Shown: positions 34 to 64,000, counted from the stretch's first letter. The stretch is 64,000 bases of DNA from Moniliella sp. 'wahieum' (GCA_003971905.1 RSEE01000008.1:1-64000), one strand, 5' to 3'. Notes: generated by a model from the letters alone, not told the origin. A program made the numbers and translations.

Positions 34-562
34 GGGAGGTAGGTTGACCAAGACATGGGTGGGTGGAAGATTGGAAGATTGGAAGAGTGTAAGAGTGGAA
101 GGCTCAGGGCTGAGCGTCAAGAGGATTGTAACTCTGTAAGACCGGAGGAACCCAAGGGATGGGTGAAGAACCTCTGGAAATGTAGAGCAATGCAATCGCG
201 ATGGTGGTGGTTCAGGTCTAAGCCTTGTGCCACACCTAGAGACAGGGGTTCAGACAAGCCTGAGTATACACGTGGAGGCTTCGGAGGACAAATCAGGGGT
301 GAAGGGTGATGAGGCGCCTTGGCCTAAGTACGGGACCACGGGTCCCAACATCAATGAATGAGCGACCATACCCGCTGTCGCGTCTGGCTGCAGCAACATA
401 GCGCAACGGACGCAAACAAAGAGAACATGGAGCGGAGGTCCTAATGGGCCTGACGCGGCGTCAGCGCGTGAGGCCTGAGGATGGACTCTAGGAACCTCGG
501 CCAAACGCACGATCCGTAGGCTGCAGCGTGCTGAAATGTGAATGCGGCTGGACGGCCAGAAC

Positions 563-727
563 TGTAGAAGACCAACAGAGAGCAGGCAGTTGGTGGTGTA
601 TTGCATGGCACATGGACTACACAGGCAAGAGGATATTCCTGCCCGGAGAATATCGGAAGGAAGGCACCGGAAGGATCCGGGCCTGGGCTACCGGCGTCAC
701 TAGTCACTACACCAGTGTGGCGCTACA
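563..727. mobile_element. Solo-LTR-like dispersed repeat, copy 1
   Basis: Starts TGTAG and ends CTACA (TG...CA, short inverted termini). Colinear with 19593-19767 through shared blocks CAGAGAGCAGGC, TGTATTGC, ATATTCCT, CTGCCCG, CGGAAGG.TCCGG, GGGCTACCG, GTGTGGCG. Confidence 0.55.
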
Positions 728-1122
728 AAACCGGTTGGTGTGGATAGTATGGATGGAGGTGCGCGGTATACAGCCGGTGGGGCTAGTGTTGGGGGGCGGA
801 TGGACGCCGCCCTGCCTCGCATTGCTGGGCAGGGATGTGGGTGTGGGGCGAACCAATACCGGGTATGTGGGGTGTGCAAGGGTGCACATCCTCTGGCGTG
901 TACATAATGTCCATCCGCCACCATGCACAACCCGCTAAATACCGTTGACGGTGGGGACGATAGCTGGACGAGGGACCAGCGACGTGGGGGGGGGCAGTGA
1001 AGCTAGTGACTGGACTAGTGACGCGTGATGCGTGACGGTGACTCGCATCGCACCTCTCCTGGATTCTTGCTGATCGATGATCGATGATCGTCGTCATGAT
1101 GAAAGCGGCCTTTACCGCTCCG

Positions 1123-1158
1123 GCGTGAGGGGGCGTGAGGGGCGTGAGGGGCGTGAGG
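1123..1158 (+). repeat. Tandem 9-mer (GGCGTGAGG) x4
   Basis: Seen directly; the repeat unit can be phased as GCG-TGA-GGG with TGA central. Confidence 0.85.
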
Positions 1159-2141
1159 CATTTACTTGGTAAAATAGTTCACTGTGCCTGAGGGGCGTGA
1201 GATCGAGACGCGCTGCCCTCTGCCAGCACACGAGGCGTTGTGCCCCACTGGAGAACTGACCCTGGCCTGGCTCTTTTCCCCTCCGCGGCGGCTCCACATG
1301 CATTTGCAGGGCACTCCATGCGTGCGCAGGATGGCTCTGACGCGCGTTCCGAGAGGCATGGGATGCAGGCAGGCAGACACCATCTCGGTGGTGGGTGTTT
1401 GTACGTGGGCTGGACGCTGGCGGCATGCTGCGTTGGATGGTGTGGGACAGGTGAGCGTTGCGGATAGCGAGAGGAACAGACGGGACGTTGAACGTTGAGA
1501 GCGTGTCTGGGTGTGAGAGGGGCCGATCAGACGGAGTGGGTTTGAAATGTGGGTGGGCCTCAAAGCCAAGGCGAGCGCTTTCAGCATTGGGGTTTGTGCG
1601 GGTGTGTGGGACATTGCCACCAGCCGCATGCTTCAGCGCTTGCCGACGGCCTGAGACTCTTGAGGCGGTATCGATTATCGATTGTGTCTACGAGCCAGCG
1701 CCTGCCTGCCGATCCTTCGCCTGGCCAGGGAAGCAATATTAAGCACGTACGGCCAACCCTACCAGGCGGCGGGCAGGGGGGCACTGGACTGGGCGCAGCC
1801 AGCGTGGGTTGTGCATGCTTGGGTTGCCCCGCAGCAGCCGCGGGGACGCAACGCACGGGGGGAAGGGGGCGGGGCGGACAGCGGCGCCAGCGGGGCAAGC
1901 CATCGGCCACGGGCCCCGTGTCGCTGCTTTGTGGGTAAAGCCACCGCCAGCAGCCACCCCGCTGCCCCACGGTTATATAGCAACGCCCCATTGAATGCGC
2001 ACTCGCTGCGTCCACAGCCCAGCCCTACCCGCACTGGCACTCCTCCCTCCGCCGCATCCATCCCACTCTCAACCCCACCACCACCACCACCACCCACTCG
2101 CACCCCTGTCAACCCCCCCAAACCACACTCCCTGACGCAAC

Positions 2142-4365: not shown

Positions 4366-5440
4366 GGACCAGCGTACGCTGCGCTGTGCTACGCTACACT
4401 GGACCTTACTCCCTCGTGTTCAACACTTTATTCTCTCCTCTCTCCTCCTTTTTGTATCCATTCTACCATCACCCACACACTCTTTTTCACCTTTGTGCGT
4501 GCCCTAGCCTCACCGGGACCTTGTCCGCTTCTCCCCTGCTTGGGTCCTTCCCCGCCTCGTTGCGTGTGGTAGCATACATTTACATTGTCACGGCGGCCCG
4601 CTTCGGCCGACATGTCGTGACCTGGTCGTGCTTTCCTTTGCTCTCCATCGACCCTCTCCTTCCTCTTCGATGGTCTGGCCATGGCCATGGCGTTGGCATT
4701 GGCTTTGACTGGCGACGAGGACCGAAGAGGCCTTGTACACATTTTTACGGGGAACTGAACGTGCCCCTGATACAGTGTGTAGAAGTAACGCTTCTAACGT
4801 TGGAATGATATACCCCAGCACTCGTTGCCCTGGAGCGATCATCGATCACCTCGATCTCCCCCGACTGAGGGGGGGGATGCACCTACATGTAGCACGCGAC
4901 CCAACCATCTTAACTGCCCCCCTCGGGTTCTCGACGTAGCGGAGAGGGAGCTGGAGCAGCGAAGCACGAACGCAGTGCAAGTAGACACAGCGCCCTGCTC
5001 ACCGCTTCCTCACCGCGCCTCACCAATGGGTCTCGACGACCGCGCATACATGCACTCCGAAACGTGCGCGGGCTAGGTGCCCTCCGAGCCTCAGGGGCCT
5101 CAGGTAAGCGTGATGGGTCAGGTGGTGCGGGCTGCTCCTGGTCTGTACTGGTCGGGAAAGAGCCTCGCCCAATCTCTCTGCCTGCTCACTATGACCATGC
5201 CCAAGGTCAAGTGCCCCCCTCCCCCCTAGCTAGACCTACCACTGCATGTTGCGTAGCTCACGGCCAGACGGATGTATCATTTCGTCTTCCTCCCCTTGCC
5301 GCAGCGCAAGCAAGAGAAGAGGTCCGGCCCCACCCCCTGCAAGCCCGAGAGTGGGACAAGAGATGCATACGACAATGACGACAAGCGGTGGAGTACAGTG
5401 GGTGACAGTTGGTGACAGTTCTTGACAGTTGGCGGTTGGA

Positions 5441-5598
5441 GTGGATTGGACTGGATGGAAGGGACTGGATTGGAGTGGATTGGATTGGGTTGGATTGGGG
5501 GTTGGATTGGATTGGATTGGATTGGATTGGATTGGATTGGATTGGATTGGATTGGATTGGATTGGATCGGATTGGATTGGATTGGATTGGATTGGATT
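5441..5598 (+). repeat. (ATTGG)n / (CCAAT)n pentanucleotide microsatellite
   Basis: Long near-perfect GGATT pentamer array with a degenerate 5' portion. Confidence 0.95.
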
Positions 5599-5703
5599 GA
5601 CCTCCCCCGCGCGCCACACCCCTCACGCGCACCCGCCAGTAAGGGGAAATGCCCACGACCACGTTCGTTCCCTTTTCCCTTTTCCCTTTTGCGTTTTGCG
5701 TAT

Positions 5704-12230: not shown

Positions 12231-12670
12231 GTTCGCTAGCTCGATGGAGGTGGTGGTGAAACGTACGGAACGAGGGGAGGCGCGCGGCCGAGGGCCCCAA
12301 GCTCAGGCTCAAGCTTCACGGCTGGCTCAAAGGCGCTGCTGCCTCATGAGCGCATGAGCGCAAGAGCAGACAAGCCGAGGCGGAATTATGAAAAAAACCA
12401 GGGCCTGCACGGGGCCAGTGTCTATTCCGCTGCGGTGGACGAGGCGCTGCGTCACGCGTCATCCTTTCATTGCATCACTGAGTGAGGGGCCCAGGCCGCT
12501 GATCGATCGCTGAGCCACGGATCAAAGTGGTTAGCCCTGGCGCGGACTGGAGATGGATGGTCGATGGAGGGCGGCGAGCATCATCGGCAGCTTGCCCAGA
12601 CAACACTTGCGCGTGCTGCCTATCCTCTGTCCCCACGTGCACTTGTGTGTCTGCCGCTGCCTGGCCCAAC

Positions 12671-19592: not shown

Positions 19593-19767
19593 TGTAGAGG
19601 ACCAGAGAGCAGGCGGTTGATGGTGTGTATTGCGTTGTACAAGAGCTATAGGGGCTAGAGAATATTCCTTCCTGTGGACCTGCCCGCCAGGAAGGAATAT
19701 TGGAAGGATTGAACGGAAGGTTCCGGACTGGGGCTACCGCCACCACGTACACACGTGTGGCGTCACA
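19593..19767. mobile_element. Solo-LTR-like dispersed repeat, copy 2
   Basis: TGTAG...GTCACA; homologous to 563-727. Flanks GGCTT/GGTCT could be a decayed 5-bp target-site duplication. Confidence 0.55.
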
Positions 19768-22762
19768 GGTCTGAGCTTGGGCCTGAGCCTCAGGTAGCTG
19801 TGGGGAGGGGCTTACAGCTCACGCGCTCAGCGCTCACATGTCACAGCCCTTCAAGATTTAAAAAATGCTTTTCGGCCTCAGACCCCCGCCGTACTCACAA
19901 TGCGCTCCCATCTCAAGAGCACAGCAAAAAGCCAGAAACAAGGGGAAGCGAATCCTGGAACAGGTAACCGTCAGTAACGTACTAATCGAACTAATCCTTT
20001 TTTGTGGCGGCTTGGTGGGAACAGATAGATGCATGATGCATGTTGGGACAGGAGCGCAGGAGCAGGCAGGAGCGCCAAGCTGGATGGCAGACGGTCTCCG
20101 GTAGCCCGGGAACAGGGGTCCCCAGCGGGAATGCAGCGGAGCTCTGTGGCACTTGCCACCGTGGTGATGTGAACAGGTGAACGTGTTCAACGTTTAGTTC
20201 AACGTACTTAACGTTCAGTTGAACTAACCTTGTGAACCAGTGACCGGGACCCAGGCCCCAGGACTACAACCGGTAACCGGTAACCGGTGACCAAAAAAGA
20301 TCTGAGATCTCAGCCCTTCTGAGATGTGAGAAGATGTGAGACTCTGAGATGAGAGAGAGGCCACAGCCTGAGGCCCCTGGAGCGCGGAGACTTGAGGTTG
20401 AGTCACTCCAGTCTCTGGTCAGATCTCAGATCTCAGAGCTAATCAGCTAGTCACTAGTCAGGCCTCGGCTTCAGGCCACTCACGCGTCACGCCTCAGCCT
20501 CACCGACTTCACCGGTTAGTGGCTATTAGTGGGGAGCCATGCTGCATGCTAGCCATGTGCGATGGCAGGCACATAAGAGCGCACAGCACCACCGACGTGG
20601 CGCATGAGCCTCACGCCTCACGCCTCACCGGTGGTGAATGCTCGTTCATCGTCATCGATCATCCGTCGACATCCTTGTCCAACGTCCACCCATCCAACCT
20701 TCTGCAACGTGCGTTCAACACGTTCAACGTTCAATTGAACGTTGAGATCAACATCAATCCAATCCCACTCGCTCCAAACTTGGCTCGACATGCCATTGAA
20801 GATTGACATTGATATTGATCCTGCAACAAGTCGCCGGTCACCAAGTCACCGGCGTCTAACGCCTGACGTCGCTTAACGTTTAACGCTTACACGTAGCGCG
20901 TAACGCCCAACGCCTAACGCCTATCGACTATCGCTTCTACCCACCACACGACCGCTCGCGGCAAAACGTCGAGAAGCAACAGCTCAAGCTGAACGCTGAG
21001 GCGCTGAGGTGGGTTTAAAGGTCCTTAAAGCTTAAGGTCTAAGGTCTAAGATCTAAGGCCTGCTGTGGCCCTGAGGCTCTGAGTGCAAGACCAGGCGAGA
21101 CCTGAAAGCTCTGGTGCATGATGCTTTTGAAGAGCGAGTGGGGCCATCAGGCATCATGCATCATGCATCAACGTCAACGCACCAACCATTTCCTATTTTA
21201 AAGCGTTCTCCACGTTCATTGATCATCGATCATCATGTTCATGCAGCATCAACGACATTGTCGTCGACATCGGTGGGAGACTTGGAAAGCGTGGAAAGTT
21301 CCAGCATGGAAAGCTTGGTGGCCTGCTTACGCGCACGCGCGTCCTGGTCATGCGATTCAATAAGAAAAGCAGTGGCGCTCGTAACTAGTAACTAGTAAGA
21401 AGCTAGAACGCATGTCGAATTGCACAGTTGCTTGGCCAAAGAGGCTAGGAGTATGTAGGTGGAGAAGCAGGAGCTCTGGGGGACTATCTAGTGCTCCGCG
21501 CTTAGAGTAGTATAAAGTAATTCAGTACTCACTCAGAACTTCAAGTACTTAGGATTCAATATTCAGTGGCGGCGTCGGAGGGACCGAAGGCACCCTGGGC
21601 GAGGGTGTGGTGGGTGGTGGGGTTCTAAAGAAGGAGTTCGTGGGGGTGGGCAGAGCAGTGCATGGTTGCAGGCTCGCCCTAGGCCTCAGGGCCTCAGGGC
21701 TTCAGGCTCAGGGCGTCACGCGTCAGTACTCAGTGTAGGTAGACCGAGTACAGAGTGGAGCGTACCAGCCCAGCCAGGCCGTCTGAGAACCCAGAGAATT
21801 GAAACAGGCGGAGCAGGGCGGAGAAGCGCGGCGGGTACGGAGCAAGAAGACAAAAACCAAGCACGGAAACGAGTGGCGAGAGGCGAGAGGCGAATGGTCG
21901 GTGAAGATGTGAATGATAGTGGGGAGGGTGATGCATGATGGGCGGGGCGGGTGAGGAAGAGTTTTCGAGGCGGGGAGAGGAGAGGAGCGCTACTCGGTAC
22001 GAGGTGTGCCGCGAAAATTCTTACGTTATCCAGCCGGAGCGCCAGTCTTTGGCTGCTATCTGGGGCAGCACGCTCCGATGGATGAGATCGATGATCGCTG
22101 GTCTGAGCGATCTGAGCTCGAGAGCGCGTGAGCGCTGAGAATCGAGCAGTACGCTACCGAGCCTGTGGAGATGGGAGATCAGCTGGCGCTGCCAGTGCCG
22201 TGCCCAACACATGCCACGCCACGCCACGCCACGCCAGCCATGGCGGTGGGAGGCAGCAGAGAGGAGGTGTACGTTGCCAGACGCGCCTGGGGCGGCTCGG
22301 GTGGCATCTGTGGCCCATAGGCTCTGCCAGTGCTCGGCTCCGGGCCCCTTCTCACCTTGTCTGGGATCTGAGCCACGGACAGGTGGCTGGACAGGCAGGG
22401 TCCGCTGGGGTCCTCTTCTTCCGGCCCCTTGTCGTGCAAGCAGTGGGCCACTCACCGCGCTGCCGCGCACTAGCCCGCACCAACTCCACGCAGACGTGCA
22501 ACATTTTGCCAACGTTCACCGGTCACCGACCGTTCAGCGTCCGACACCTGCAGCCCGCCGACCGTCTCTTATACCGCCTCCGTCCATCCCCCGGCCCCGG
22601 CCCCCTCCCCTTCCTCCTCTTCTTCGCCCGACCATAACCCCTTCTCCCCCTCCAGCCAGCGGACAGACATACCCGCGCGCGTTCGCTCCTCTTCACTTGT
22701 CTGCTTGAACGTTCCTCCCCAACCTCTTCTTTTCCAGCCCCCAACTTCGCTTTGCTCGCACC

Positions 22763-27508: not shown

Positions 27509-27611
27509 TGCACTCCGGGATTCGAACCCGGGCAACAACTTATGCTAGCTCCTCGTGATGGAACCCCAATGGCATGGGAAAGTTGCATCTTAACCACTTG
27601 ATCACGAGTGC
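27509..27611 (-). tRNA. tRNA-Gly(CCC) with 33-nt intron (27542-27574)
   Basis: Minus strand: GCACTCG acceptor 5' strand, D-arm with AGTGGTTAA, anticodon stem CAACT/AGTTG with loop TT-CCC-A^A, T-arm CCGGG-TTCGAAT-CCCGG, downstream T6 pol III terminator. The 3' acceptor strand is 2 nt short. Confidence 0.85.
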
Positions 27612-28133
27612 TTGTGTGGCTTGCAGGATACAAAAGATATACAATGTCATCTACAACGTTTTGTCTCCTTCATTCATTTATGATCACCTGATGGGCCCAG
27701 ACCCATCGACCGAGCTGGGTCTGCGAGCTGGGGGGCAGACACTTGGCCACTGGCCTGCGCCACATCACACGCACGGAGGAGCAGCCGCCTCGAGTGGGAG
27801 GCAGCCAGAGGGAGCGGATCAGCGCGATCAGCGACCGGCGCTCAGCGGTCGATGACCGGTGATGGCGAGGCTTGCGGCCCAGGGGCAGTGCCGATCGGCA
27901 ACGTCCAACCCTACTGGCGGCTGGTGGGGCTCCTGCGGCCTGAAGCCTGCAGCCGAGGCAAGTCAAGCGCTGGCGCATTGCAACTTGAAACGTCGCGCGC
28001 TCTTCGCGAGGAGGCTCACGCTAACACCCGCCCGGCACCCGCGCCCACTTGCGCCCAGCTGGGCGGCTCTACTGGCCAGCGACCACCATCTCCTGCCCCT
28101 GCGTCTCTGTCGCCGCCTGGCGTGTCGCGCGCG

Positions 28134-30854: not shown

Positions 30855-33800
30855 GGACGTGGCGTGAGCTTGCACGACAGCTCGGTGGGATGTGGTGGTA
30901 GGAAACGCGGTGGAAAGGGGCGACGTTGGTCGAGGTGACGCTGATCCCGACTTCTTGTACCAGGGCCGCCGGACAGCTTACTCGATATCAAACGGGCCAG
31001 CGAGCCCATAGCAGAAGCGAGCGACTAGACTAGTGATGCTGACGCTTCAAAGTTTGCAGCTGGGGATAATTAGTGATTGGCATTGATCAGCGATCAGCGG
31101 TCAGCGGTCGGTGACGGAATGATAACCCGCAAGTGACTCCACCTGGGCACAGCAGACGGACGGACATTTTGGCACCGATCACCCCATCCTCACAGTAGTA
31201 TACGTTCACCTGAGGCCTGGACGTTAACTCGGGGGCCGGTTATCGTTATCATTTGTTGTTTCTCGAAACGCGCATGTCGGTAAAACTCATCATTTGCTTT
31301 TGAGGTCCTCTTTTGCGATGGGCCCTCTCGTCGATTGCCGGGCACAGAGAGGTCCACTCCGGGTTCAAGGCCTGGGGACGATTCGCGTCCTCTATGGACG
31401 ACTCAGCTCCGAAGATGGCCCTAGAGACCCAGGCTTCTCTCACACCTGGGCCCCGGCCTGTTCCTGCAATCAACCTCGAGGAGCTGGGTGATGCTCGCAC
31501 AGTTCTGGAGCTTGTAGCCAGGGAACCGCCGTGAAACGACAAGTGCTACGAAGTGGAGAAGATCTGCCACAGAATAGGGTCCGTACCCAGTTTCGACGGG
31601 TGGCCATGTTGAAGGAGAAAAGGCCGGCCTTCACCGTCGTCCCCTTGTTTCCCCGGTCCCAGCACCCCCCCACACACTAAAAGACCCTAAGTACGTATCT
31701 CTCTCTCTCCCTCCTAACGCCCAGCCTCCCCTCCAATCCCTTCCCCTCTCCACCTCCTAACCTGGCGATTGTTCTTCTCTTCCTCTGGAACAGCTTTTGG
31801 AGGAGTAGAGATGTCCAAGATCCGTGAGGCCACGGGATACAGGGCCCACCCCCCAAGCCCAGCCTTGGTTATCTCGTCAGTTTCCGTCGCTGAGGGCCCT
31901 TAGCCGGTGTTTCTTGACGAGTTTGGAACGCAGGGCTGCTTGATATGCCGACCACACACGTTTGGAACAGGGCGCCTACCTTCACGAGTCCCATCTGATG
32001 TACTTATATGGGCATCCACCCAACCCTCAGCACGGTGGTATCTCACCCCAAATCGGAAGGATAGACAGAACAGGTCAACCAGGTTCTCTAGCCCGCTCCC
32101 CAATCCCGTGTATTTCGAATATGGTGCAGTCCCCCACAATTCCAGGAAGTCCTTGACGCTCGCACCAGGGATCGCGGCGAACGTATTGAGTACTACGTCC
32201 ATTTCAAGACCTACAATGCATCCACCACAGCGGGAAAATGCCGACCTGTCCCATAAGTCCGAACTTTTATGTTTTCCTCTCCCACGAACGATCTTTTGTC
32301 ATTCTCTCCGTGTCTGACAGTGGACCTTTGGTTGGTCTCCATCGCTTGCGACTGTTACAGGTGGGAAGGGGGGGGAGATAGTGGTAGCATGTGGATCAAT
32401 AATGAGATCAATGGGATGATGTGGAAGTTTGATATGTGCTGTGGTGGTAGATATGAGAGAGAGCCTCTCCTCCCCCCCGTCTTTCATTCATGTGCCAAGC
32501 AGACTATTACGCGTTACGTGTTAGGGGTGCACTCTCAACTTTATTGAGTAATACCACAAAAACTGTGGTTGGTTTCCCGACTCCGTGCCTGATGCCAGCA
32601 CACTGCACCTGTGCGGGTCCCCCAGTCATTAATAGTTGTGTGGCTGCAGGGCGAAACTAAATTTTTGGTTATGAGGGTCGTCTCTTTCTCTTATTAACCT
32701 CGGGCCGCTCATCTCCTGGGCGGAGAGCTGTGGTTTGGACGATGTGGATGTATTTTTTGCAGTACGGGTGGAGCGGCACTCGAGCCATCAAAGAGGGAAC
32801 ACATCATCGATCAATCGCAACAAAACGGGCGTGGTAGAGGGCTGCTACGCGCCACGCGCGATATGTTCATGATGCCAGCCAATCAGCCGCTGCCTCAGCG
32901 CTTGTCTCCCAGACCACTTTTATCGTAGCGGTCAAAAGCCAGCCCCCCGACGGCCACAACCTCGCCCAGGACGCCAGCTGTGCACACCACACGCCATTGA
33001 ATGTTGCTCGATGAGTCTAGGCCTCATCGCCCAGGCTGAGCTCCCAGCCAACAATAACACACTGTCCCAGTGCCGATACGCCGACTAGGGTCTAGTCACG
33101 CGCCCTCGCCATTTTAACTGAGGAGCGCTAAAGTATAGTTGCCAGGGAGGCGTGTACCACTTGATTTTTATTTTCTCGCGTGCCTCTCTATATATATCCC
33201 CCCAAGCCCTGTTGACTGCGCTCAATTACAAGCGCGCATCTCAACCAAGTCCCTCCCATCTGCACCCGCCTTCCATCGCGCTCCAGGTGCTGGCCATGTC
33301 TCCGTTGCGTCCCATATCCAGCCTTGGGCTCCAAAGCGCGCTGCCCCTGGCCCGGAAAACCGTAACAGCGCCCTTCCTTCTTCGGGTGCGTTGGCTGCCA
33401 ACCGACCATGAGCTAGCTAGCAATAATGACTGGCTCATCAGTGGGCGGCATGCCCCCCGCACTCTTTCGCAAAGTGCTACCGCCTGCTATCGGTCTTGCC
33501 CGCCCCGGTTGCGCTTGTTGCCCCTCCCAATCCAGTACATGAAGAGCACACGTACATCGCGCCTTCACTCGACGGAGAGATGCTGCCCTTTGACGGTGCT
33601 GTCCTGCCGCCACTCACCCACACTCGACTAACTCGCTGCCCGCCCCCAACCGAACTATCCGTTTGAACCATGCCATGCCATTTTCTCAACTGCTCAAACA
33701 ATCAGGCAAATCCCATTAGGACTGAGGGTGGAGATCAGAGGCCACAACCGTCATGCACGCAGACACGCAGTTGTCCGCACCCCCCTCCTTCCCTCCCTCC

Positions 33801-34992
33801 CATTCCCCATTACATCTTCACGACATGTCTCCGTCCCAAGCACTCCACGAACCTCTCTTCTCTTTGACTGTTCACTTCCCAAGTCTTATGCTCATCGTTT
33901 TTTGGACGAGAGTGCAAAGGCTGCTGCTTGTGTATACCCGAGAGGAACTTGGAGGAAATGTTTTTATCAATGAACTGATCTTCTATTCCCAAGCAAATCA
34001 TTTATACCTTGTTTTCCTTTTGTACTTTTGCTCGTCAGGATAGAGTTGCCAGACTTTCTAGAATAGACGCACTCCTGAGAGTCATGACGACGTTCGGGTA
34101 CTATATTATGCGACTAACAGACGTCCAGCAACAAGGCGTTTGACCACATTGGAAGGAAGTGACCGAAGAGCCTCATTGGCAATAGTTCGTCGCCCATATA
34201 TGTCTACTATGTTCATTTGCATCCACTCGCGCTACATCCGTCGGTTTAATAGAAGCGAATGGTGGGGGTCTATGGCCTGACCCGTTCCCGACCCAACTGG
34301 CCTCTTGATTGGATTGGCAGAGACGAGCGGGCAGCACACGAAACACGAGCGATATGGAGAATAGAGGGTGTGGGCCTCTCAATACCAACAACCCGTCCTG
34401 GAAAATGCATCAGATTAAGAGAGTCCGGTCGCACCACTCATACACACAGGTTTTGGTATAGCGTCTCTCAGAACAATAAAACATTGTCGATAGGGACACA
34501 TACAGACAATCCCCGCGCGCCCTCTGGTTCGCAACCTCATCCGTCACACAGATCATCTCTACCGCCCATGGCCCGAAACAGATCGAAGCCTGTGATATCG
34601 TGAAAGTGGTTTACAGCGCACTATGAGTTAGGCGTTTTTACTAACGGCCATGGCCCTTTTTCGATCCATCCCAACCTTATGGTCGATCCGCCCCTCATCA
34701 CTTTCACATTGTATTGGTTGGTTGTATCGGGAGGGGCTTTATAGCACCGCAATCCAAAAAATCCATAGAACGTAGTAATGTTGAACAGGCTTCACTACGT
34801 ATCGTGTGGAACATGTTCTTCCATTTTCAACAGCAAGCATATGTTTTGGCTTGAATGTGTGAATGCATACATGGGACTGATGGGTGCTGGACCAAAACAG
34901 GAAAAGAGACATGATCAAGCACGAATGTGTCCCAGTTTGGTGTTCAGCTTGAAATGGGAGAAAAGATTCCAACCATGAAAGGCTCTCCTCTC

Positions 34993-35498
34993 TCAGTGCT
35001 TTTCATTCTGGGCCTGTGCACTCGTTTCCTGTGCCAAAGTGTGAGGATCAGCATCGGAATCCTGAGCTTTGGAAACAGCCTCTGATTCCGTGGTAACAGA
35101 GTCCTCATAATCACCACCGAGGGAAGAGTCACTTCCGTAATGGTCCTCAGTTGCGTTCTTGACGGTGTCCCGAGCTAAATCATGCGGGTCGCGCTCCTTA
35201 TGATACAGCTCGGCGTGCACCGATTGTTCCGAGTCAGTAGGGGTGCCTAGACCCAACTGGTGACTTCCCTGAAATTTTACAAGTCTTCAGAGTTAGAACA
35301 CCTTGATACCAACGGCGATATATGGCAGCAAAGAGGCCACTGACTAATCTTGCGGGTGGCATATAGAATCACGGTCAAACGTACATGAAAGGAAGAAGCT
35401 TGGGGAAATCGAGTGCGGAGAACCGGGCCGGATTTTGGATGGGCGGCACCAGCGCGAACCAATCGGTGAAAGCAGGAGAAAATGAGAGCCTTCTGCAT
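34993..35498 (-). CDS. Small acidic, hydrophilic protein (~129 aa) with mitochondrial-presequence-like N-terminus
   Basis: Exon 1 35385-35498 (MQKALIFSCFHRLVRAG...SSFH). Phase-0 intron 35269-35384 (GTACGT...CTAAC...TTTCAG). Exon 2 34993-35268 is in frame and has an internal repeat SEQSVHAE..DPHDLARDT / SEAVSKAQ..DPHTLAQET. Confidence 0.65.
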
Positions 35499-37514
35499 GT
35501 TGCGCAAACGTGAAAGAGGAAATGAGTGGTCGCGTCACTGAGAGCGGAAGAGGCAATGGTGATAAAAGATCGAAGAGTGCTGGGGGGGCCTCACTGGCTT
35601 TTATATATTTTTACCATCTGTCATGCATACCACCCAACACTGACATTAGGCAGCAAAATGTATTGGATAGAGGGTTCTATGTCCGGGGAGGCCCGGCTAT
35701 TGCCCGTGGGCCCAACGCTCCTCGCAGGTATGGCAGGTTGCACGTCCCTCAGCGTGTGTCGTTATATGCGACGGCAGCCCTCTGTCATCTCCTTCCATGT
35801 TATACTAGTTTCTCTTTAGAGTATTGCTGTAGGGATATGAGATCATATGAGTTCATACGAGACGGACCAATCTCTCGGATTTTTCGAGTGTATCCGGCGC
35901 GGTGACGGTCAGACCTATGTCAGCGGTTCGTGAAGCACGCCATCGTCCCCTGTGGACCTAATGACGCGGGCAAGAGGGTCAGATCTATGGGGCATTGTCA
36001 TATGCCTCGCAGACCACTAGTACGGTTGTCATTTCTGCTCCCCTTTTAGAGCTCTAGTTTTTTCGCGATTGAGGATGCCACACTGATGTTGGACGTTTTG
36101 ATGCCTCATCATGCATCAGACATAATATGCCTCTGTGCTTTATATTGGGGAGAAGAAGGAAAGTTCTAGGATCTCGAAGATGATTGATGGACGATGATCG
36201 ATTTTGACCGATGAAGCTTGAAGAAGAGAGGATCGGGCGCGCGCCTAAAAGACACAGTGGATCAGCAAAATACGTCACAGATGTTTCAAGATATAAAATA
36301 CCTTCAAAAACGTCAGAGCATTTTGGTTGTGGCGACGCGCAAACCTGTCACGGCTGTAGGTCTGGTACGTCCTCGACGTCACCCTTGAACGTCAGAGACG
36401 TCGTTGACGTGTCCATGGGCGACGTATCTGACGAATCTGATCCTCCTATGCTCGCTCTCCCTGGGTTACTATTGGTGTTACATTTTATAGTGTTGTTGTT
36501 ACGGGGCGCTCCGGTTATCTCCGGACGCTGAGCCCCGCATGTCGTAGACATCTCAGCCCAACATGCGTCAGTCGGTTAGACTAGCGAGAGACAGTCGACA
36601 CCTTATCCTTGTCCGCGGCCCGCCATGGCCGCATGGGCTTATCGGTACGATGCTTTGTGCCTATTGAGTCCAGTCTTGTCAGAACCCTTCCTGCTGCGCC
36701 CGACTGCGCCGCGTCAGCACCTTGGGAAGCAAGGGCTGTGCATTAGTCTTCTTTACCTTTCTGGGAAGTGCCCTGCATTCTGTCTATACCTGTGATGAGG
36801 CACTTGATTCCTTCTGCTGTATATAAGCAGCCATGTCTAAGGCTTGCTAGCTGTGGTCCTTGTCGACCATCCTGTCTATTACTGTTGGTCTCCCCGACTA
36901 CCAGTTCCTCTCTCGCCCTTCCACCTTCTACCACCCTTACGCTTACGAATTTACGACTCACGTCGAGTGCACTGCAAGCCGCGGTTACTCACATCAGTAG
37001 CGCTTGCTCTTCTTTAGGACTCTGTCTGTTCCCGCCAGCTACAGCGTACCAAGTGTGGTAACGCTGCGAGGAACAGAGTAATTCCGACGGAGCTCCTGGA
37101 CCCCTTCTGCTGGTCTAACGACCTACGTACGCGGCTCCTACCTCGGAGGGTCTGGACTGCGGCCTTTGCACACAGGCAGCCACCCAAACTAGAGGGTCTC
37201 TCCATAGCCTCTACACCCGCTCGGTTCAACCAGGATCTGGAGCAGGACCTAACGTACGAAGAGCCACCGATTGATCTGTCCAAGGGTTTATACCCCTAAA
37301 CTAACAGGGGGGGGCCCGATGACAGTTGTGGACCCTGCGGTCCACCAGGCATGCCCAATATGGCGGTGCTTGTGGGGCTCTCGTGACACTCGACGCTGAA
37401 GAATCGGTCCTCCTTTACTACGGGATCGGTTGAGTCAGTGGGTACAACAAATACACCGCACCGTCCGAAGAAGAGGATTTCTCGGGTCGCGTGGCTCAGT
37501 GACTATTATATAAC

Positions 37515-37640
37515 CCTGGCGATCCCCCTGGTTCCTTGACCTTAGTGGCGCCCCCAAGTAACCCCCGCAAGATGAACGGTTAGGTTTAGACGTAGCGTCC
37601 CCCCTGTCCCAGCCTTAAACTCTGTCAATGAAATGGACGT
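37515..37640 (+). mobile_element. 5'-truncated 3' end of the CRE-like LINE (~125 bp)
   Basis: Closely matches 62767-62891, including CCAAGTAACCCCCGCAAGATGAACGGTTAGGTTTAGAC and CTCTGTCAATGAAATGGACGT. Confidence 0.8.
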
Positions 37641-38664
37641 GGTCGCGAAAGGGGCACAAAATGGCAACACATTCGGCCTACTGGGCCACAGCATCCAGCA
37701 CAGTTGGCCAAGGCCTATCTTCAACGAAGGAGGCGAACGGCTGTCCCGGTAGCGAGAAGGGCGTCAATGAGCGGGAGGGTTGGGAGCTATATGGCGAGCA
37801 AGTGCAAGTCTCTGTTGCGCCGTGCAACAACAAGGCAGCAGCACCTCTTGCGTCTTTCGCATTACGCTTCGCCGTCACGTGTCACTCGACATGCGCCACA
37901 TGCCACGTGTCACATGCCACTCGAGCACCTGGCTCACACAGCCGCAAGGCGGAAGTTAGAATCTGCTTTCGTTGTTCCGCTCCCGTATAATTCCGATGCC
38001 ATTTTCATTGGCAACTTCACACGCGCCGGGGCAAGGAGAAAAGCGCCACCACGATGTGAGCCGGCCTTGGATTGATACACCTTTCCGTAATGCCTAGCGC
38101 CTGAGGCTCAGGCTGAAGCTGCGCTGAAGCTTGAAGGTAACCCTACCAGCTAGGCCGGCTAAGCAGCCACGGCCGCGAGCGATGCTAGCCGTCTAACATC
38201 ATTCAAAAAGCAAATGTTTCTTGAGAGTCGAATCGTATCCTCGGTAGTCTTATAACGGGGCCAACAGATTGTCTGTCAAGAGATAGTAGGCTGGCACCTA
38301 TCGGCCTGACTCCCAGGTCTCGAGCCCTCAGTGCAGAGTACAGATGCAGCGGAGCTCACGTTATATAGCAGATCAGAAAGCCTACCGACATTGACGCTGC
38401 AAGCTCGACATTCTACTGTTGTTCCAAGCTCGGCCCACACCCAAGCAATGTTGCAGAAATGGCAAAGGCGCCAATTTTTGAACAGGCCAAAACCATGAAC
38501 ACGAACATGCTCAATTCCCTGTTGTGGCCAGAGAGGAAGGGACTCCACCATGCACAGGAAGAGGTAGAGGTGAATCAGAGCCCCAAGGGGCCTAATCACT
38601 CTACCCTACCACTCAAGACAAAGGGAGGGTGTACCACCGCTGAAATGGGTAGGAATAAGCCTGC

Positions 38665-39895: not shown

Positions 39896-41521
39896 TTTTC
39901 TCTCCAATCTTCGTCGCCTTCTGCTGGATACGGCAGCCTCCGCAACTAAGGCGACGGTCGAGTTTTTGCTTTGCCGTTTTCGTCATAGTCTGCTTTGCTA
40001 CTTTGTCTGGCAGCGTTGGCGTTTCTATGCCCCATGCCTACCTTTCTCGGGGGTTATATCGCGCCATGCGTGGATCGCTCCACGCATAAGCAGTAACCCT
40101 CAAAAAGCCTGGTCTTTTCTCTATGAACCCAGGGTGGAATGCCATCACTCCCAAGCCTTGCATTGTTTCGCAGGTAGTATATACATGCTTTACACACACG
40201 ACGCAGGACATCGGCACACTCGGATAGGGCCAACGTAGTGCATTGTTGTGTTTGCAGTGCCCCAGTAGTTGCCAAACAGCATGTGTCAGTTCAGGAGTAC
40301 AGTTTGTACTTGCAGTGACCATCTGTCCACAGTCCATATTAAAGTCTTGTGCGACTGACTTTTTTTAGTTCTTGCCAAGCTTGAGCCAATCGCTCTGGCA
40401 CCAACCTGACTGGGTCTGAGATGGTCAATTCAGCCTCCACGGCAGCTTGGCATCGCAGGGCACACAGATCTGCGTGAACCGCTATAGCCCTGGACCCACG
40501 TTAACTTTGAGAGTTTCGTATATATGCTCAGCGCTCAGCACTATACGTTTAGTGTGAGCGTCTTGCCTGCTCGGCTTCGAGACTGCAGCGGCATGAGCGG
40601 CATTATGGACTTTGGCCTCGGCTTGCACTTCCGACCACATACCACGGTCGAGCTCTAGTACACCAGCTGTGTCGGGTCATCTGCATGGGTTCCACGCCCT
40701 TTTCAGTTCCTGATGAGGCGATGAAGTTGAGAATGTAAGCCATACGGGGACGATGACAACGAAGTCAGCAAAGTAGCACTGGGAACAATGTACTTGGAGC
40801 ACGGGGGATTCTTTGCGGGTGTCGCGAAGTCATATTAATACCGACTGTACTACGGGGCTCAGCTGTTCGTTGCGCATCGCATGTTCATGGTATGTGCCAT
40901 AGCGGTTGTATTATGCAAAACGCTGGGTAGACCAGAAGTGAGAGTCGTCCAGTGTTGATCAACGAGATCAACACACAGCTCCCAGCACTTTGTGTGCTCC
41001 TAAATTCCGCAAGGGCCCCGGCATGAAACCTGCCTAGCGGGCTTTTGCCAGAAGCGGCCTGACGCGAGAGAAGCTTGACAATCCCAATATGAGAGTCTTT
41101 AAACAGTCCAGGGCCCCGCTTGAACTGTGACAGTTGTCAACTGGGTGGACGCACCAACGATGTTGCTGCCTCTCGGAGGGCAAACTGGGGAGAAGTGGGT
41201 TGCGACTGGAGAGGAGACCGGTGACCGGTAATTGTGCATGGTGACCGGTGATGCGTGTATGATGGAGGGGACGTGATCGGCCCGTGACGAAGTACGTCCA
41301 GAAGAGCTCAATAAACCGAGATTTGAACAAATGCAACCTGGGGGCGTCTCACGCGTGGTCGTTACCGAACCCGCGTCGCGCTTGCCTATACGCGCGCACG
41401 CGTTTCTCTTCGCGTCTATGCGATTTCGCGTACGGGGCAAAGAGAGAAAAAGGGACAGTGCGTGTGCTTGTGCCTGTTTCCGTAGCCCCACCACCCTCCA
41501 CTCGTCCCAGCGTTAGTGACA

Positions 41522-49117: not shown

Positions 49118-50786
49118 ACCGGATGATATTCGCTTGTCACCAAAGGCATGGCCCCGTCGGTGCTTAACACTGCGCCAGAACCCGATACCCAGTCAGTCAT
49201 CTCCACTTTGACTCACAAAGCTACTGATTAGCTTTGCATCTGCATCGTTTGTTTGTTTTACGATGCTGTCCCCGCGTTTTTTTCTTTTCTTTTGCTGTTT
49301 TGCTTGTCTCCTTTCACTCTGGTTCCTCGCTGTTCTCCTTGACGTTTCGCCACTCCGTCCCGGATGTCTTTTTCCTTATTTGTCCTCCTGTGACATGTGA
49401 CATGTGATGGCGACCCCATCTCCCTCGTTCCTTTCGGTTTCCAGGCTTCTTCCTACGCATGTGGTCGCCGCTGTGGACGATTTGAACCTGGCTTTTTTCT
49501 TTTTCTTTTTTCCCCTTTGCCGGGCACATAAGTCGAGACTACTACGAGTACCAACCCTCTCCTGTGGGTTTTTGTCTTCTTGCTCCCCATACACATTCCC
49601 CCTTGTTCTTCTTTTGGCAATACCCTCCTGATACTACCCCTCCCTCCTCCGCTCTGCTTCTACCCCTGGATGACTCCTTTGCCCCCCATTTCCTTTTTTA
49701 CGATCGCTCTGTTGAGTACGCGCTGCACGACCTCTCCCACTTGCCCTTGTCTGAACCCATTCCATTCCATCCCATCCGAGCTCTTTTCTGCCCTGTCCTC
49801 CCATCCTCGAGATACAGCATCGGGCGCAAGCTAGTGGTTCGATCGGAGGAACAGCTTGGGCTCATGGAATGGACAATGGAGAATGGACCTTGGAATCAAG
49901 GCGGAATCGATTTGATGATTTTGAAGCTTGTGAGCGCTGAGTCTGGTCAGCTTGATGCTTGTGATGTTTGTGAAGCTTGGACCAAGTTCCGAGACGCCTC
50001 GGAACTGGGACAAGATCTAAGGTCTAGGATCTTTTGGCAACCCCGAGGCGATGCAATGATTACGCTGATACAACGCTGGAATTTGGAAGAGTTCGTATAA
50101 GATGGCGGCCGGGATGGCCAAAAGGTAGTAGTAGAGCATAGGTAATGGAGTAGGAGTACAAGTAGGAGTGGGGGAGGCGTGGTTTCTCTCTTCAATTAAG
50201 CTTCATCGGCACCAGCCAGCATCAGCACCAGATTCACTGGCCGGTCTCCTGAGGCCTGACCGATCAAGTCGATCAAGTTGATCCGTCAAGATCAAATTCG
50301 ACCCCTGCCCACACCCGAGCAGTTTGTCCAAGCCGAAGCGTCACTTCTGACATCGAAAGGCTGACGGCTGACGTGACGGCTGCTGGTGCGCGAAGCAACC
50401 CCCATTTGGGCGATACCTGAGCTAGCTATACCCAAGTCTAGTAACTGCTGGGGTACTCAGACTGAGTACTGGTACTGACCTCCCCCATCCCGTTGGATGG
50501 GCAGCCCAAGGGTGCGTACGAGATGGTACGGCACGGTACGGTGGAGGTGGAGGTGGACCTATACTGCGCCTGCATGTTGGATCGATAGAAATCCAATCCA
50601 TAACCAAACCCGTGGTACCACTGCAGGCAGGCGATCGCTCCTACCCGAGTACTGAGTTCAGTACAGAGGAGACAGACACAGTCCGGAAACAACACAGCAG
50701 ACACAAAACGGAATACAAGAAAGGTCGCCTCCTCCCGCCAGCCGCGTCGCACAGCACTTCCCAACCAAGTGACACAGGTGCAGGCA

Positions 50787-50866
50787 CAGGCACATAGACA
50801 CATAGGCGCATAGGCACATAGGCACATAGGCACATAGGCGCATAGGCACATAGGCACATAGGCATA
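50787..50866 (+). repeat. Octamer tandem repeat (GGCACATA)n, ~10 units
   Basis: Seen directly, with GGCGCATA and GACACATA variants. Confidence 0.9.
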
Positions 50867-50928
50867 TGGGCACATCCGCCCATACACATCCGCCCACGCC
50901 CATCTGCCCTGGGCTCGAGGCTAATTAA

Positions 50929-52374: not shown

Positions 52375-52879
52375 GGGGGGCAAGGGGGGCCAGGGCTGCC
52401 GCAACGGCGATGGAGGGGTGGGGGAGATGGAGAGGGGGACGCCGAGGGGAGGCAGATGGAGGGAGATGGAGGCAGGGAGGAGGCAGGTGGCAGCGGGGCA
52501 AGAACCGGAGCAGGGCGTGGCAAAAATGCGCAGCCGCCCAGCGCTTCAAGAGCAGCTTGACCAATCAATCCGTCCAGCCCGTCCCGTCCGACCGCATCCC
52601 ATCCCATCTACTGGCTGGCCCGTCACGCGTCACATGTCACGCCACGGCGCTACCCACGCGCGCGGCCTCCCGGCGCACCGCGGAGACGGCAGTGCTTAGG
52701 TCATCCCAACACTGACCCCGTACCGCCGCGCACAGCGGCTCCGGCTACGTACCCCTCTGAGATCTGACCCATCCACTATCCCCACCATCACGTGACCCTC
52801 TTCTAGCGCTCACCTGGGCGCCTGGTTGCGTCTGTGCTTCTGCAGCCTCTAAGATCTAACCCCCCCTCCCTCCATCCCC

Positions 52880-54708: not shown

Positions 54709-56270
<1,562 letters not shown>

Positions 56271-60408: not shown

Positions 60409-60989
60409 TCTAGCCATGTGGACCGACGTGGATCCTGCTGCCCTGTTTTCCTACCCCTGCTCACCCGTCTCGTTGGTTTCTCTTCCCGTGGCACTGTCAC
60501 ATGTCACACCTACTTGCGTATACCCCCCTGTTCCAGGGCCTCCTACCCTCCGATCATCATACGCCCACAAGGCCACCATGCGCTTGTCAGGGTGGCCTTG
60601 CGCTGGCGAGGTCGTGAGGCCGTAATACCCTTTGGTACTTTCTCTCTCCTGCTCCCGTGTTCTGTCTCTGCAGCCCCACCTTATCGATTATCTCCCTCCT
60701 TGCCTGGTTCAAGACGTTGGCAAGATGACATGCTCATATGAATATGGATGGATCTGTCACGGGCCTGGCTGGGGATGTTGGCCATAGATAAAGCAGATGG
60801 AATTTTCAGAGCCAAGGAGAGCCAGACTTAGGAGCTGGGATGCCCGGCACGATATACGACCAGCTCCGACCGCAAGCCCGTGCCGGGAGCGGAACGCTGC
60901 ATGTGTCGGCGTCTGTGCTTTGCATTCGGACTGCTGGGTTCATCAAGTAGACAATGGTGCATCCTTGCCCCACCGCGGTCGGGTTGTGC

Positions 60990-62040
60990 TCACGCGACAA
61001 GCGACTTGGCCCGCACGAAGTGCGTCACATCCAGTGCTTCCGAGCTGGGCTGGATCGCGCCGGCTTGGCGTAAAATCTCCACTGTCTTGGTCACCGTTTC
61101 GCTCGACACGGTGGACGTGGTAGTGGCCTGGCCCGTGGTCGCCGCCGCACTTTCCGGGTTGGCACGAGGGTCCTGTACGTACCGCACCGAGGAAAACCAA
61201 GTGGCCACGTCCTTGGCCTGGTACCCAAACCGTTTCGTCACCCACTCCTGTGGCTCATGGGCCAAAAAGCCCGCGATGCTCTGTTGCAGCTGGGATAGGA
61301 ACGCGTCCAGTGCCGCCTCTTTTTCCCCACCATCCAGCACCTCCTTGGACACTGCAATGGACCACGACGGCCAGGGCGTAGGGATCGAGCCCAAGAAACG
61401 CACTTCGCCACTGTGCACAAATGGAAGCGTCGTCACTTTTTCCCACAGGAACGTACCCGTCTCCAAGCTAGTAGGAACAGGCGAGGTTAGCCAACGGGTT
61501 TGGCCCCCCAAAATAGACACAACCTAGAATCAGACGAGTCAAGGCAAGATGGACGTACCCGGGAACTTGGTTGACGCCCTTGCGTAGGTTCTCAAACGTG
61601 TCATTCACTTTAAACTCAGGCTTGGACTTCCACCCACGCTGCATGGCAGGTAGTAAGCCCATCGTTTGCGATCCCGAGCCGAGACGGCTGATACCGATCG
61701 GCGCATGCTCCAAATCGTCCACTTGCTGGAACCGGTCCGCCTTGGGGTCGGTGCCGGTAATAATGGCCCATTCGAGCGGACTGCGCACATAGCTGCCCAC
61801 CAACACCAAGTCGTCCCGCCCATTCGCAATCGACGCGACCAACGCATCGGTCAGTGCGACGGCAACGTCGATGGTGCGTCCGTGCGAAGGATCGGTGCGC
61901 AACGAGCTGACCATCTGCCCCGTCCCACTGTTTTGCCACACTAGCTCAAACGCCTCTTGGCCCCACGCCGTCTCGCTCAGCTGCCAGAGCGGGGAAGAGA
62001 AGTGTTCTTGCACAGTACCCACCTTGAGCTTGAAGACCAT
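60990..62040 (-). CDS. Type-2 periplasmic-binding-fold protein, Ca3427-like (NMT1/THI5-related)
   Basis: LKVGTVQEHFSSPL, GTGQM, YVRSPLEWAIITG, IGISRLGSGSQTM, FLWEKVTTLP, IPTPWPSW; intron 61468-61558. Confidence 0.85.
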
Positions 62041-62512
62041 TGCGAACGACTGAACAGTGCGGGCGGAGACGAGCGAAGCGGAAAGAAGGCAGGAAAAAGG
62101 GAAAGAGAGGGGAAGGAGGTCAGATGGAAGAAGAGCAAATGCGACCGTCCGCTTCGCCAGCCTCAGGCCTCACCGTCGACGCCCGCCCCGCCTGCGCTCC
62201 TTTCGTTCGCCAGCTCTGCTCCTCACCTTCCTTGCTTCCGCCTGGCTTTGCGCAATCGATATTCAATCTTCAATAGTCCCTCGCTTGGGCCTTGTGGGAA
62301 GACAGGATATCTCCGAAATTGCATCATTGCACATCCGGCGGTACCTTCCCCGCACAACCCTACTTTGTTGGAATGAAATTGAAATAGAATTGGTAAACTG
62401 CACGAGGGCCCTTTCTTACCAACAAAGAAATGGAGAGGAGTCACTAGTCACTAGTCACTAGTCACTAGTCAAGCTTGAAGAGACAAAAAAATATGGTGCG
62501 TGGTCGTGTAAT

Positions 62513-62895
62513 GCTTGAACAAGCAGAATGCGACAAGAACGCCAAGTACCAGGGACGCACTCAAGAACCGTTTTTCCCCTGGTTTTGACGACGCGAGGAT
62601 ACTACGGCACCAAGACGGCGGGCAAGTTGTTTGCGCATTGGAAGGAGTTGGCTACTAAATCTCAGTGGAAATGGTTCCTCGCTCGGATGTCAACCACGTT
62701 CCTCCGTGTCCACACGCGCTTCCTCGGGTACGGGAACGGATGGCGAGAACCGGAGGGTCTCGCTATCCTGGCGATCCCGCTGGTTCCTTAATCTTGGTGG
62801 CGCTTCCAAGTAACCCCCGCAAGATGAACGGTTAGGTTTAGACCAGCGTTCCCCCTGTCCCAGCCTTAAGCTCTGTCAATGAAATGGACGTAGTA
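62513..62895 (+). mobile_element. 5'-truncated CRE/Cnl1-like LINE copy (end of RLE domain + 3' UTR)
   Basis: LEQAECDKNAKYQGRTQE / FPLVLTTRGYYGTKT..FAHWKE..WKWFLARMSTTFLRV. The 5' part matches 18428-18545 (minus), the 3' part matches 37515-37640; ends in GTAGTAGTAG. Confidence 0.82.
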
Positions 62896-64000
62896 GTAGA
62901 CGCGCTCTTCTCGTACAAAGTCGGCAAGGCAAAATCGACTCAGGCAAGTTAGTAAACTGCCCATCTTATCGTTCCGGAGTATACCTGACAAGGTGGTGTT
63001 GTTGGTCTCAGATCATGATCTCCACCCTAAGGGATATGATGTCGATGATGGAAAGGGAAAAAACCATCACTGGGCCCCCGCTCAAAAGTGGCGCCCTCTC
63101 CCCCCTCTCCCTCCACACGCGAGGGGCCAGGCTGGAAAGCCACACAACACAGCCTTTCATTCTCGCCACACATCTGTGCGCTTGTAACATGTAAGGGGGG
63201 ATAGGTCTGAGAAGGGCGTGCAATGAGCGCTGAACGCCCCATCGCCATCTCCACACTCCTCACGACTGTAGCCTTTAGTCTGCCCCGTCACTATGGCCCA
63301 ATCATTCTTCCCAAACAAAAAGGCGGGCAGCGATGGCGATCTGACCGTGAGAAACGCATGCAACAGGATGGAGGAATACAGCGGCGTGACGATGTACTGG
63401 CCCACCAGACCGGTATGAGGTTGAGGTCCATCTCCACGGAGCAGCAGCGTTTTCATATATATATATATCTTTCACCTAAGCTTTCCTAGCTCTCTGGGGG
63501 CTCATTAACCCTCTTCGGTCGTCCGAGACTCCTCGTGTGTTGGTTTCCGAGAGGACAGGGAGAGGCGTCCCCGGCCGTAGGAGAAACTCCGTGTGGCGTC
63601 CATTACACGGACCCCGAGGGACGAAATAGTACACCCGAGGTCATCGAACGTGCGTGTGCGGATTTGTACCAGCCTATTATACCGGCTCCGTGCAATGCTG
63701 TAGAGAATAGGGTGCCAGCCGCCCAGAATAGGCACTGGTGGGGGAAGTACAGGGTCTAAACTCAAAATGATTAATTAGGAAAGAAGGTTCGAAGGACTTT
63801 CATTAATCATTACTGAAAACGTACTAGATTATAGGACCTACATAGTATACTCAGTATGCAGGACTCAGTATTCATTATGAAGGGCACTCAGTACACTCAG
63901 TACTCGCCTATCATCAGGCCTGAGCCTCAGGCCTCACATGTCACATGTCACATGTCACAGGACATGCTCCAACTGTGCAAAACATCTGCGCAAAACATCT

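Follow-up and report, generated by a model that had tools for sequence, protein, structure and literature searches.

What process has placed two copies of a TNA triplet (N, any base) on either side of a 4-bp palindrome, at one intergenic site after another, is the question raised by a 64,000-nt stretch of DNA from the fungus Moniliella sp. 'wahieum' (GCA_003971905.1, RSEE01000008.1:1-64000), referred to here as the window. A first-pass annotation of this DNA had attributed the sites to excision of a hairpin-forming DNA transposon. Seventy-five TNA-palindrome-TNA 10-mers were found in 60 loci (1.17 per kb), as against means of 2.1, 2.1, and 4.4 and a maximum of 10 in Markov simulations of order 1, 3, and 5 (30 simulations per order). 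The N4 spacer is palindromic in 75 of 130 TNA-N4-TNA sites, where chance predicts 1/16. All four TNA triplets are used (TCA 40, TGA 22, TAA 8, and TTA 5), and any other triplet accounts for at most 6 such 10-mers; grouped by core class, the same count gives 1 for ANT, 3 for CNG, and 10 for GNC. As many as 14 of the 16 palindromic tetramers serve as spacer, while palindromic spacers of 2, 6, or 8 nt (9, 0, and 0 sites) show no enrichment. Period 7 is also the most frequent tandem-repeat period, with 46 of 156 rows from Tandem Repeats Finder (TRF), and 21 of 44 period-7 consensus units take the form yz-TNA-z'y' on rotation (primes denote complements), where chance predicts ∼2.7%. The site pattern is real and highly non-random: the single geometry of fixed TNA core and variable palindromic spacer described in the first-pass annotation holds up against the Markov background, and all twelve of its example sites are present where it had placed them (Table 1).

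A natural control was obtained from 80 fungal metagenome loci (648,248 bp), which were retrieved with an alignment query built on the DUF2408 protein encoded in the window; a single-protein DUF2408 query of the metagenomes returned no relative. These loci contain 42 such 10-mers, a density of 0.065 per kb that matches chance. The ratio of TNA sites to their non-TNA equivalents is 42:620 in the fungal loci, again as expected by chance, as compared to 75:95 in the window. The pattern is therefore not a general property of fungal DNA, and among the sequences compared it is specific to this genome. A literature search, with subscription-only papers outside its scope, found no paper describing such a genome-wide pattern.

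The sites also avoid coding DNA. Of the 2488 TNA triplets in the window, 630 lie in Pfam-supported open reading frames (ORFs), which occupy 30.9% of its length; only 2 of the 60 loci fall within these ORFs, both at ORF edges (p = 9e-6). Any ORF of at least 150 amino acids was considered in a second count; such ORFs cover 61% of the window and contain 12 of the 60 loci (p = 6e-6). Sites are thus rare in coding sequence, in line with the first-pass annotation, which had noticed none in recognized CDSs, and such avoidance speaks for real mutations that selection has filtered rather than for an artifact. No target signal was detected outside the T and the A, and the central base follows availability, with 42 S (G or C) and 12 W (A or T) loci as compared to 893 S and 377 W for the TNA triplets that lie outside long ORFs.

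The content of each spacer is dictated by its neighbors. With the ancestral target written as pq-TNA-rs, a +7 event converts TNA-rs to TNA-rs-s'r'-TNA-rs (right type) or, as the mirror image, pq-TNA to pq-TNA-q'p'-pq-TNA (left type). The 7-bp period is extended by exactly the 2 predicted nt in 37 of 49 single loci (13 right, 17 left, 7 both, and 12 neither), where the chance of such an extension is ∼1/16 per side and ∼1/8 for either side. Spacers between identical TNA triplets were then checked for a composition in which initial bases of rs-s'r' precede final bases of q'p'-pq. Fully flank-predicted +7 spacers numbered 37 of the right type and 43 of the left type, each with a uniform expectation of 0.24. 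Less frequent junctions obey the same rule: +9 junctions, consisting of a 7-bp direct duplication and 2 inverted bases, occur at 3 + 4 sites (0.015 expected each), a +11 junction with inverted bases from both flanks occurs once, at 38112 (0.001 expected), and +8 junctions, in which one base has been nibbled, occur at 3 sites (0.06 expected per class, two classes). When each site is counted exclusively, the flanks explain 68 of 130 N4 spacers, 3 of 44 N5, 7 of 63 N6, 0 of 43 N7, and 1 of 30 N8, with 22 left-only and 17 right-only sites. The other 15 X-N-Y cores, used as a control, gave at most 5 sites for the +7 classes and at most 2 for the +9 classes. The filler is either 2 nt or absent (1-nt filler classes occur once each, and a plain 7-bp duplication without filler occurs four times), and the window shows no enrichment of fillers or duplications of other lengths.

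Junctions other than +7 disclose the size of the underlying duplication. Both copies of the target duplication are kept around the junction in seven +9 sites (U7 + 2 nt + U7) and one +11 site (U7 + 4 nt + U7), with TNA central in U; since neither form can be produced by repeated +7 events, both sides of the junction carried a full 7-bp copy of pq-TNA-rs. Sixteen-mers built as U7 + 2 inverted bases + U7 number 13 in all, and TNA occupies the exact center of U in 7 of them. One further sequence of +9 form, AGCGGCA-TG-AGCGGCA at 40587-40602, is centered on CGG and may reflect chance or a rare off-target event. Two simpler schemes were considered and rejected. A 5-bp duplication with 2 palindromic (P) nucleotides would put TNA at the edge of the duplication and would make +9 and +11 junctions impossible, and a 3-bp TNA duplication with two element-end bases per side conflicts with the observed flank templating and with the 14 different cores. 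The motif CTCACTG, tested as an element end, was not enriched (6 matches in the window versus 11.65 expected).

Repeated visits to one site are also legible. In three of four mixed arrays (19827, 21716, and 63927) both cores are those that the outer flanks dictate, and the array at 52623 agrees with its flanks on only one side. When insertions that conform to the rule were removed greedily, 69 events (501 bp) were taken out of 54 loci at TNA, as compared to 0-5 events at seven control cores. Of the 54 ancestral heptamers so reconstructed, 10 were already palindromic and 44 were not. Right-type 12-mers comprise 37 exact copies and 34 with one violated constraint, of which only ∼10 would be expected from the other cores; this implies that many of the scars are young and that the older ones are undergoing decay. 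In sum, the insertions are flank-templated, with a 7-bp duplication centered on N, an inverted filler that is 2 nt long and flush, a TNA triplet, and avoidance of coding DNA. The controls relied on were the Markov simulations, the 15 other cores, and the 80 natural loci. Two further controls proved unsuitable, as a complemented but not reversed filler overlaps the real class if r = s, and reversed sequence preserves palindromy.

The symmetry of the filler constrains the type of hairpin from which it could derive. In the filler, the last 2 bases of the flank recur exactly in inverted form, with the axis of symmetry lying between bases. Hermes makes its first nick one base into the flank, which is taken as the source of odd-centered footprints; the flank hairpins of RAG and Transib are flush. 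Under a flush-hairpin model the classes (2,2), (4,0), and (0,4) contain 22, 37, and 43 sites in the window, as compared to 0, 0, and 1 under an Ac/Hermes-type model with a 1-nt offset, and the odd-centered geometry of the hAT type was rejected on these counts. No frame shift rescues the offset model because the central base would need to be complemented, while it is copied directly in 62 TSA-palindrome-TSA sites as against 4 perfect 10-bp palindromes of the form TSA-palindrome-TS'A (S, G or C). The same directly repeated base (62 versus 4) rules out a fold-back palindrome model. Given that the offset geometry fails and the central base is direct, the scars appear to need flush hairpins. Flank hairpins are formed by hAT, Transib, RAG, and the Mutator-like element (MULE) Muta1 alike (PMC5499845; this source, PMC12730594, and PMC5873905 are cited throughout from excerpts). 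The Muta1 flank hairpin made in vitro is 43 + 43 nt, i.e., flush (PMC5499845), and Ac/Ds footprint palindromes have as their center the complement of the base adjoining the element (PMC5873905).

Taken together, the sites are probably, though far from certainly, stacked excision footprints of a cut-and-paste element, a reading in which the mobile element, the hairpins, the opening enzyme, and the overlap ligation are each deduced from the form of the scars. Integration would occur with a 7-bp stagger centered on the N of TNA, and gap repair would leave pq-TNA-rs on both sides of the element. On excision, the transposase would leave flush, covalently closed hairpins on both flanks, and a host nuclease would open each hairpin 2 nt from its tip, so that the left flank would carry the 4-nt 3' overhang rs-s'r' and the right flank q'p'-pq, each of them self-complementary. 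Artemis likewise has a preferred hairpin opening 2 nt from the tip. The overhangs would then overlap completely, such that both strands could be ligated directly without synthesis or trimming, and the resulting 4-nt heteroduplex would be resolved by replication or mismatch repair to TNA-rs-s'r'-TNA or TNA-q'p'-pq-TNA, a net gain of 7 bp. Such full-overlap ligation would account for three observations: +7 events dominate, right-only and left-only outcomes are about equally frequent, and fillers of other lengths are nearly absent. Less frequently, one or both overhangs would be kept beside a full or nibbled duplication, yielding +8, +9, and +11 junctions. Each scar would create a second TNA, and on palindromic sites the overhangs would pair perfectly, so that repeat visits and later slippage could grow perfect heptamer arrays; mixed arrays would be expected where right and left outcomes alternate at one site.

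The scars are thus best read as hairpin-type excision footprints, but stereotyped and array-building ones, of a candidate element type. As regards the first-pass proposal, its core of P-nucleotide footprints at TNA-centered targets, with repeated hits building arrays, is strengthened by flank-templated spacers and by +8, +9, and +11 junctions that reveal the N-centered 7-bp duplication. Its transposon origin is a deduction, the window having yielded neither element nor transposase. Of the families it named, the hAT type falls on geometry and the flush RAG, Transib, or MULE type agrees with it. Its further claim that these cycles had reshaped much of the intergenic DNA was too strong for 69 exact events, yet the spacer at 20-22 kb is indeed heavily hit.

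Several results weigh against a transposon origin. Examination of 218 ORFs of at least 110 amino acids in the window revealed no transposase domain, and no long inverted repeats convincingly resembling element ends were seen there. Segments with 12-nt inverted ends flanked by identical TNA-centered heptamers numbered 3, as compared to 1-4 at control cores; the search for an element with terminal inverted repeats and its transposase, suggested in the first-pass annotation for the whole genome and run here in the window, thus gave no TNA-centered element above control cores. No close relative with usable spacers was found among the metagenome loci (the nearest comparator has 74% protein identity and is only 3.5 kb long), and windows from other genomes included no look-alike. 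Known hairpin-forming transposases also leave more diverse products: Ac/Ds in Candida gave 28 footprint types among 128 revertants (PMC5873905), and Muta1 excision in yeast is >90% precise (PMC5499845). Footprints of known hairpin formers vary far more than those in the window, and a product so stereotyped needs a special explanation. The literature surveyed, in part as excerpts, documents no superfamily pairing a 7-bp duplication with a flush flank hairpin.

The alternative that survives best, and nevertheless an unlikely one, is a host process without an inserted element, in which a resident or domesticated nuclease would make 7-nt staggered breaks at TNA, followed by fill-in, addition of 2 nt by fold-back synthesis or through hairpins, and joining. 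Such a process would suit a window in which no element is seen, a product that is unusually uniform in its nearly invariable 2-nt filler, and the very high density of scars in one spacer (17 loci per 2 kb). Yet a single-step break does not naturally leave a full 7-bp copy and inverted bases at both ends, whereas integration, gap repair, and excision do. We know of no nuclease with a 7-nt stagger at TNA, which further counts against a host nuclease.

Replication slippage, or hairpin-driven expansion of already palindromic heptamers, is very improbable. The prevalence of period 7 among TRF rows and the presence of arrays of 3-5 units, whose growth by slippage is possible, speak in its favor. Slippage requires a prior repeat, however, and 44 of the 54 reconstructed ancestral heptamers were not palindromic; nor can it make flank-inverted 2-nt fillers or +9 and +11 junctions, explain the specificity for TNA, or accommodate single-copy, flank-templated sites. 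The first-pass view that ordinary slippage does not suffice is therefore upheld. Scarcely more credible, and if anything less so, is the notion that the sites are palindromes in promoters bound by transcription factors or other proteins and kept by selection. Their non-coding placement, often near gene starts (e.g., three loci between divergent CDC50 and MBOAT ORFs), would be in keeping with such a function. Against it, 14 of 16 cores are used and each core is dictated by the neighboring two bases, and therefore no single protein could read the sites; they also occur in 3'-3' spacers (e.g., 4839 and 54543, as read by hand from the ORF map), and copies decay by point mutation. Least probable of all is a sequencing or assembly artifact in scars known from assembled sequence alone, as it would not avoid coding DNA, yield mutated older copies, or give a +7/+8/+9/+11 spectrum under one rule.

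Individual scars and arrays illustrating excision footprints of the proposed kind are collected in Table 1. The distribution along the window is uneven, and the long spacer that includes 20-22 kb is visibly made of decayed heptamers. The interval 31000-38300 is gene-poor, with a G+C content of 0.50-0.54 and few long ORFs, and has ∼5 scar loci in 7 kb as compared to 17 in 20-22 kb; this low count may reflect chromatin state or age.

Table 1. Representative scars, arrays, and scar-rich intervals in the window, with the example sites of the first-pass annotation that were confirmed.
Position	Feature	Sequence	Remark
469..480	+7 scar, single, right type	TGAGG-CC-TGAGG	
697..709	+7 scar, single, right type	TCACT-AG-TCACT	
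1071..1090	Array	(TGATCGA) x2.9	
5089..5104	+9 scar	CCTCAGG-GG-CCTCAGG	2 inverted bases from right flank
12345..12359	+8 scar	CATGAGC-GC-ATGAGC	2 inverted bases; right copy minus 1 base
19700..22300	Hot spacer		20001-22000 contains the starts of 17 of the 60 loci; many decayed 7-bp arrays
19827..19843	Mixed array	TCA-GCGC-TCA-CATG-TCA	Cores predicted by flanks GC and CA; ancestral GCTCACA
19981..19996	+9 scar	ACTAATC-GA-ACTAATC	
20713..20734	+9 scar, then +7 scar	GTTCAAC-AC-GTTCAAC, then TCA-ACGT-TCA	
20995..21009	+8 scar	GCTGAG-GC-GCTGAGG	
21684..21698	+8 scar	CCTCAG-GG-CCTCAGG	
21716..21732	Mixed array	TCA-CGCG-TCA-GTAC-TCA	Cores predicted by flanks CG and GT
22102..22117	+9 scar	TCTGAGC-GA-TCTGAGC	
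27817..27832	+9 scar	GATCAGC-GC-GATCAGC	
38112..38136	+11 scar, then +7 scar	GCTGAAG-CT-GC-GCTGAAG, then TGAAG-CT-TGAAG	Inverted bases from both flanks in +11 scar
50262..50277	+9 scar	GATCAAG-TC-GATCAAG	
52621..52859	Three loci (52623, 52758, 52850)		Short spacer between divergent CDC50-family and MBOAT-family ORFs
62439..62471	Perfect array	(AGTCACT) x4.7	
63886..63901	+9 scar	ACTCAGT-AC-ACTCAGT	
63924..63959	Mixed array	TCA-GGCC-TCA-(CATG-TCA)x3	Cores predicted by flanks CC and CA
469, 697, 1019, 1071/1078, 20274, 20419/20426, 21382/21389	Confirmed example sites, part 1		
38125, 49391/49398, 52623/52630, 56476, 62441-62462 x4, 63934-63948 x3	Confirmed example sites, part 2		

The window begins with a TAACCC repeat (x5.5, TTAGGG type, positions 1-33) and therefore represents a chromosome end; its G+C content is ∼58%. 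It encodes intron-split housekeeping genes, including an AMP-binding enzyme, an RRM protein, an eIF3 subunit, Gtr1/RagA, ribosomal protein L19e, dUTPase, CDC50, MBOAT, a class-III aminotransferase, and others. The DUF2408 protein has its closest named relatives in Malassezia species (62-68% identity), with unnamed proteins reaching up to 80%, and the source was accordingly taken to be a basidiomycete in or close to the Ustilaginomycotina. A tRNA at 27509-27611 on the minus strand (Rfam, 34.4 bits, full model; absent from ARAGORN output) lies in the DUF2408-RGS spacer, adjoining the scars at 27817 and 27853, and with its 103 nt probably carries an intron. Rfam and ARAGORN gave no match in the window relevant to the scars. 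Tandem arrays of other kinds are present as well: a pentamer array, (TTGGA) x32.6 at 5436-5599 in the spacer downstream of the AMP-binding gene, falls outside the TNA rule, and an octamer array, (AGGCACAT) x11 at 50788-50875, lies directly downstream of the CDC50-family gene. Comparison of the window with itself identified only two paralogous pairs, 62767-62891/37515-37640 and 62512-62626/18428-18544 (minus strand), of ∼120 bp each and 92% identity. No 7-bp differences were found between the copies of these two short pairs, and no Pfam domain was found in ORFs overlapping them; they are probably relics of a dispersed repeat.

If the sites are indeed excision footprints, a single mobile-element activity would have produced more than one exact scar for every kb of the window, with 17 loci in one 2-kb spacer. 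It would exemplify a mechanism other than slippage that makes tandem repeats out of unique sequence. The scars would give a base-precise record of the target of the enzyme (nnTNAnn) and, for the host, of hairpin opening and joining, with a 2-nt offset and overlapped 4-nt overhangs. The transposase suggested by them would unite a 7-bp duplication with flush hairpins, the combination undocumented in the surveyed literature and its excerpts. For annotation, they would account for many ANNNNT palindromes in promoters of this fungus, which need not be binding sites. A more tentative extension, possible but on balance doubtful, is that the enzyme is undescribed and is active still or was until recently. 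It might be a new cut-and-paste lineage or a domesticated nuclease that combines an N-centered 7-bp stagger with RAG/MULE-like flush hairpins and whose visits are frequent enough to seed heptamer microsatellites by genes. Under this extension, the genome would amount to a natural record of thousands of hairpin-repair events.

Among known systems, V(D)J coding joints and Transib excision resemble the scars in that the filler exactly inverts the last 2 bases of the flank, giving the flush-type even palindrome rs-s'r'. The CACTA/Mirage/Chapaev/Transib clade differs in its duplications of 2-5 bp (PMC12730594), as compared to 7 bp in the scars. V(D)J coding joints are also far more varied, and no transposase of the Transib/RAG type was seen in the window. 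For Mutator-like elements, no TNA target preference is known to us, and neither a MULE domain nor long inverted ends were found by ORF and inverted-repeat searches of the window. Muta1 shares with the scars the flush hairpin (43 + 43 nt) and a long target duplication, but its duplications are 8-10 bp rather than 7 bp and its excision in yeast is predominantly precise, as noted above (PMC5499845). MULEs are present in basidiomycetes, and T3 of Cryptococcus has been described with a MULE domain (PMC11588098); T1 of Cryptococcus lacks a DDE transposase and a target motif and shows a strong promoter bias (PMC9942834).

Footprints of hAT elements such as Ac/Ds are alike in containing P nucleotides and short deletions that arise via flank hairpins, in fungi as well (PMC5873905), but their odd-centered palindromes would explain only 0-1 sites in the informative classes, as compared to 37 and 43 for flush palindromes. 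The hAT duplication is 8 bp, with 7 bp, as in the scars, in hAT7 only, families of which occur in rust fungi (Basidiomycota; Kojima 2025, PMC12730594). Kyakuja families, which belong to KDZ, likewise produce 7-bp duplications in Basidiomycota, namely in Agaricomycotina (PMC12730594); they feature a KDZ transposase and CA..TG termini, and no Kyakuja element was seen in the window. Duplications are 8 bp in Zisupton and Dileera (PMC12730594) and in KDZ1 of Cryptococcus (PMC11588098). Finally, microsatellites and short minisatellites are similar in forming short tandem arrays in non-coding DNA, and the longer arrays of the window may grow by slippage as they do. Unlike ordinary repeats of this kind, nearly half of the period-7 units here follow yz-TNA-z'y', and the single-copy scars are templated by their flanks.

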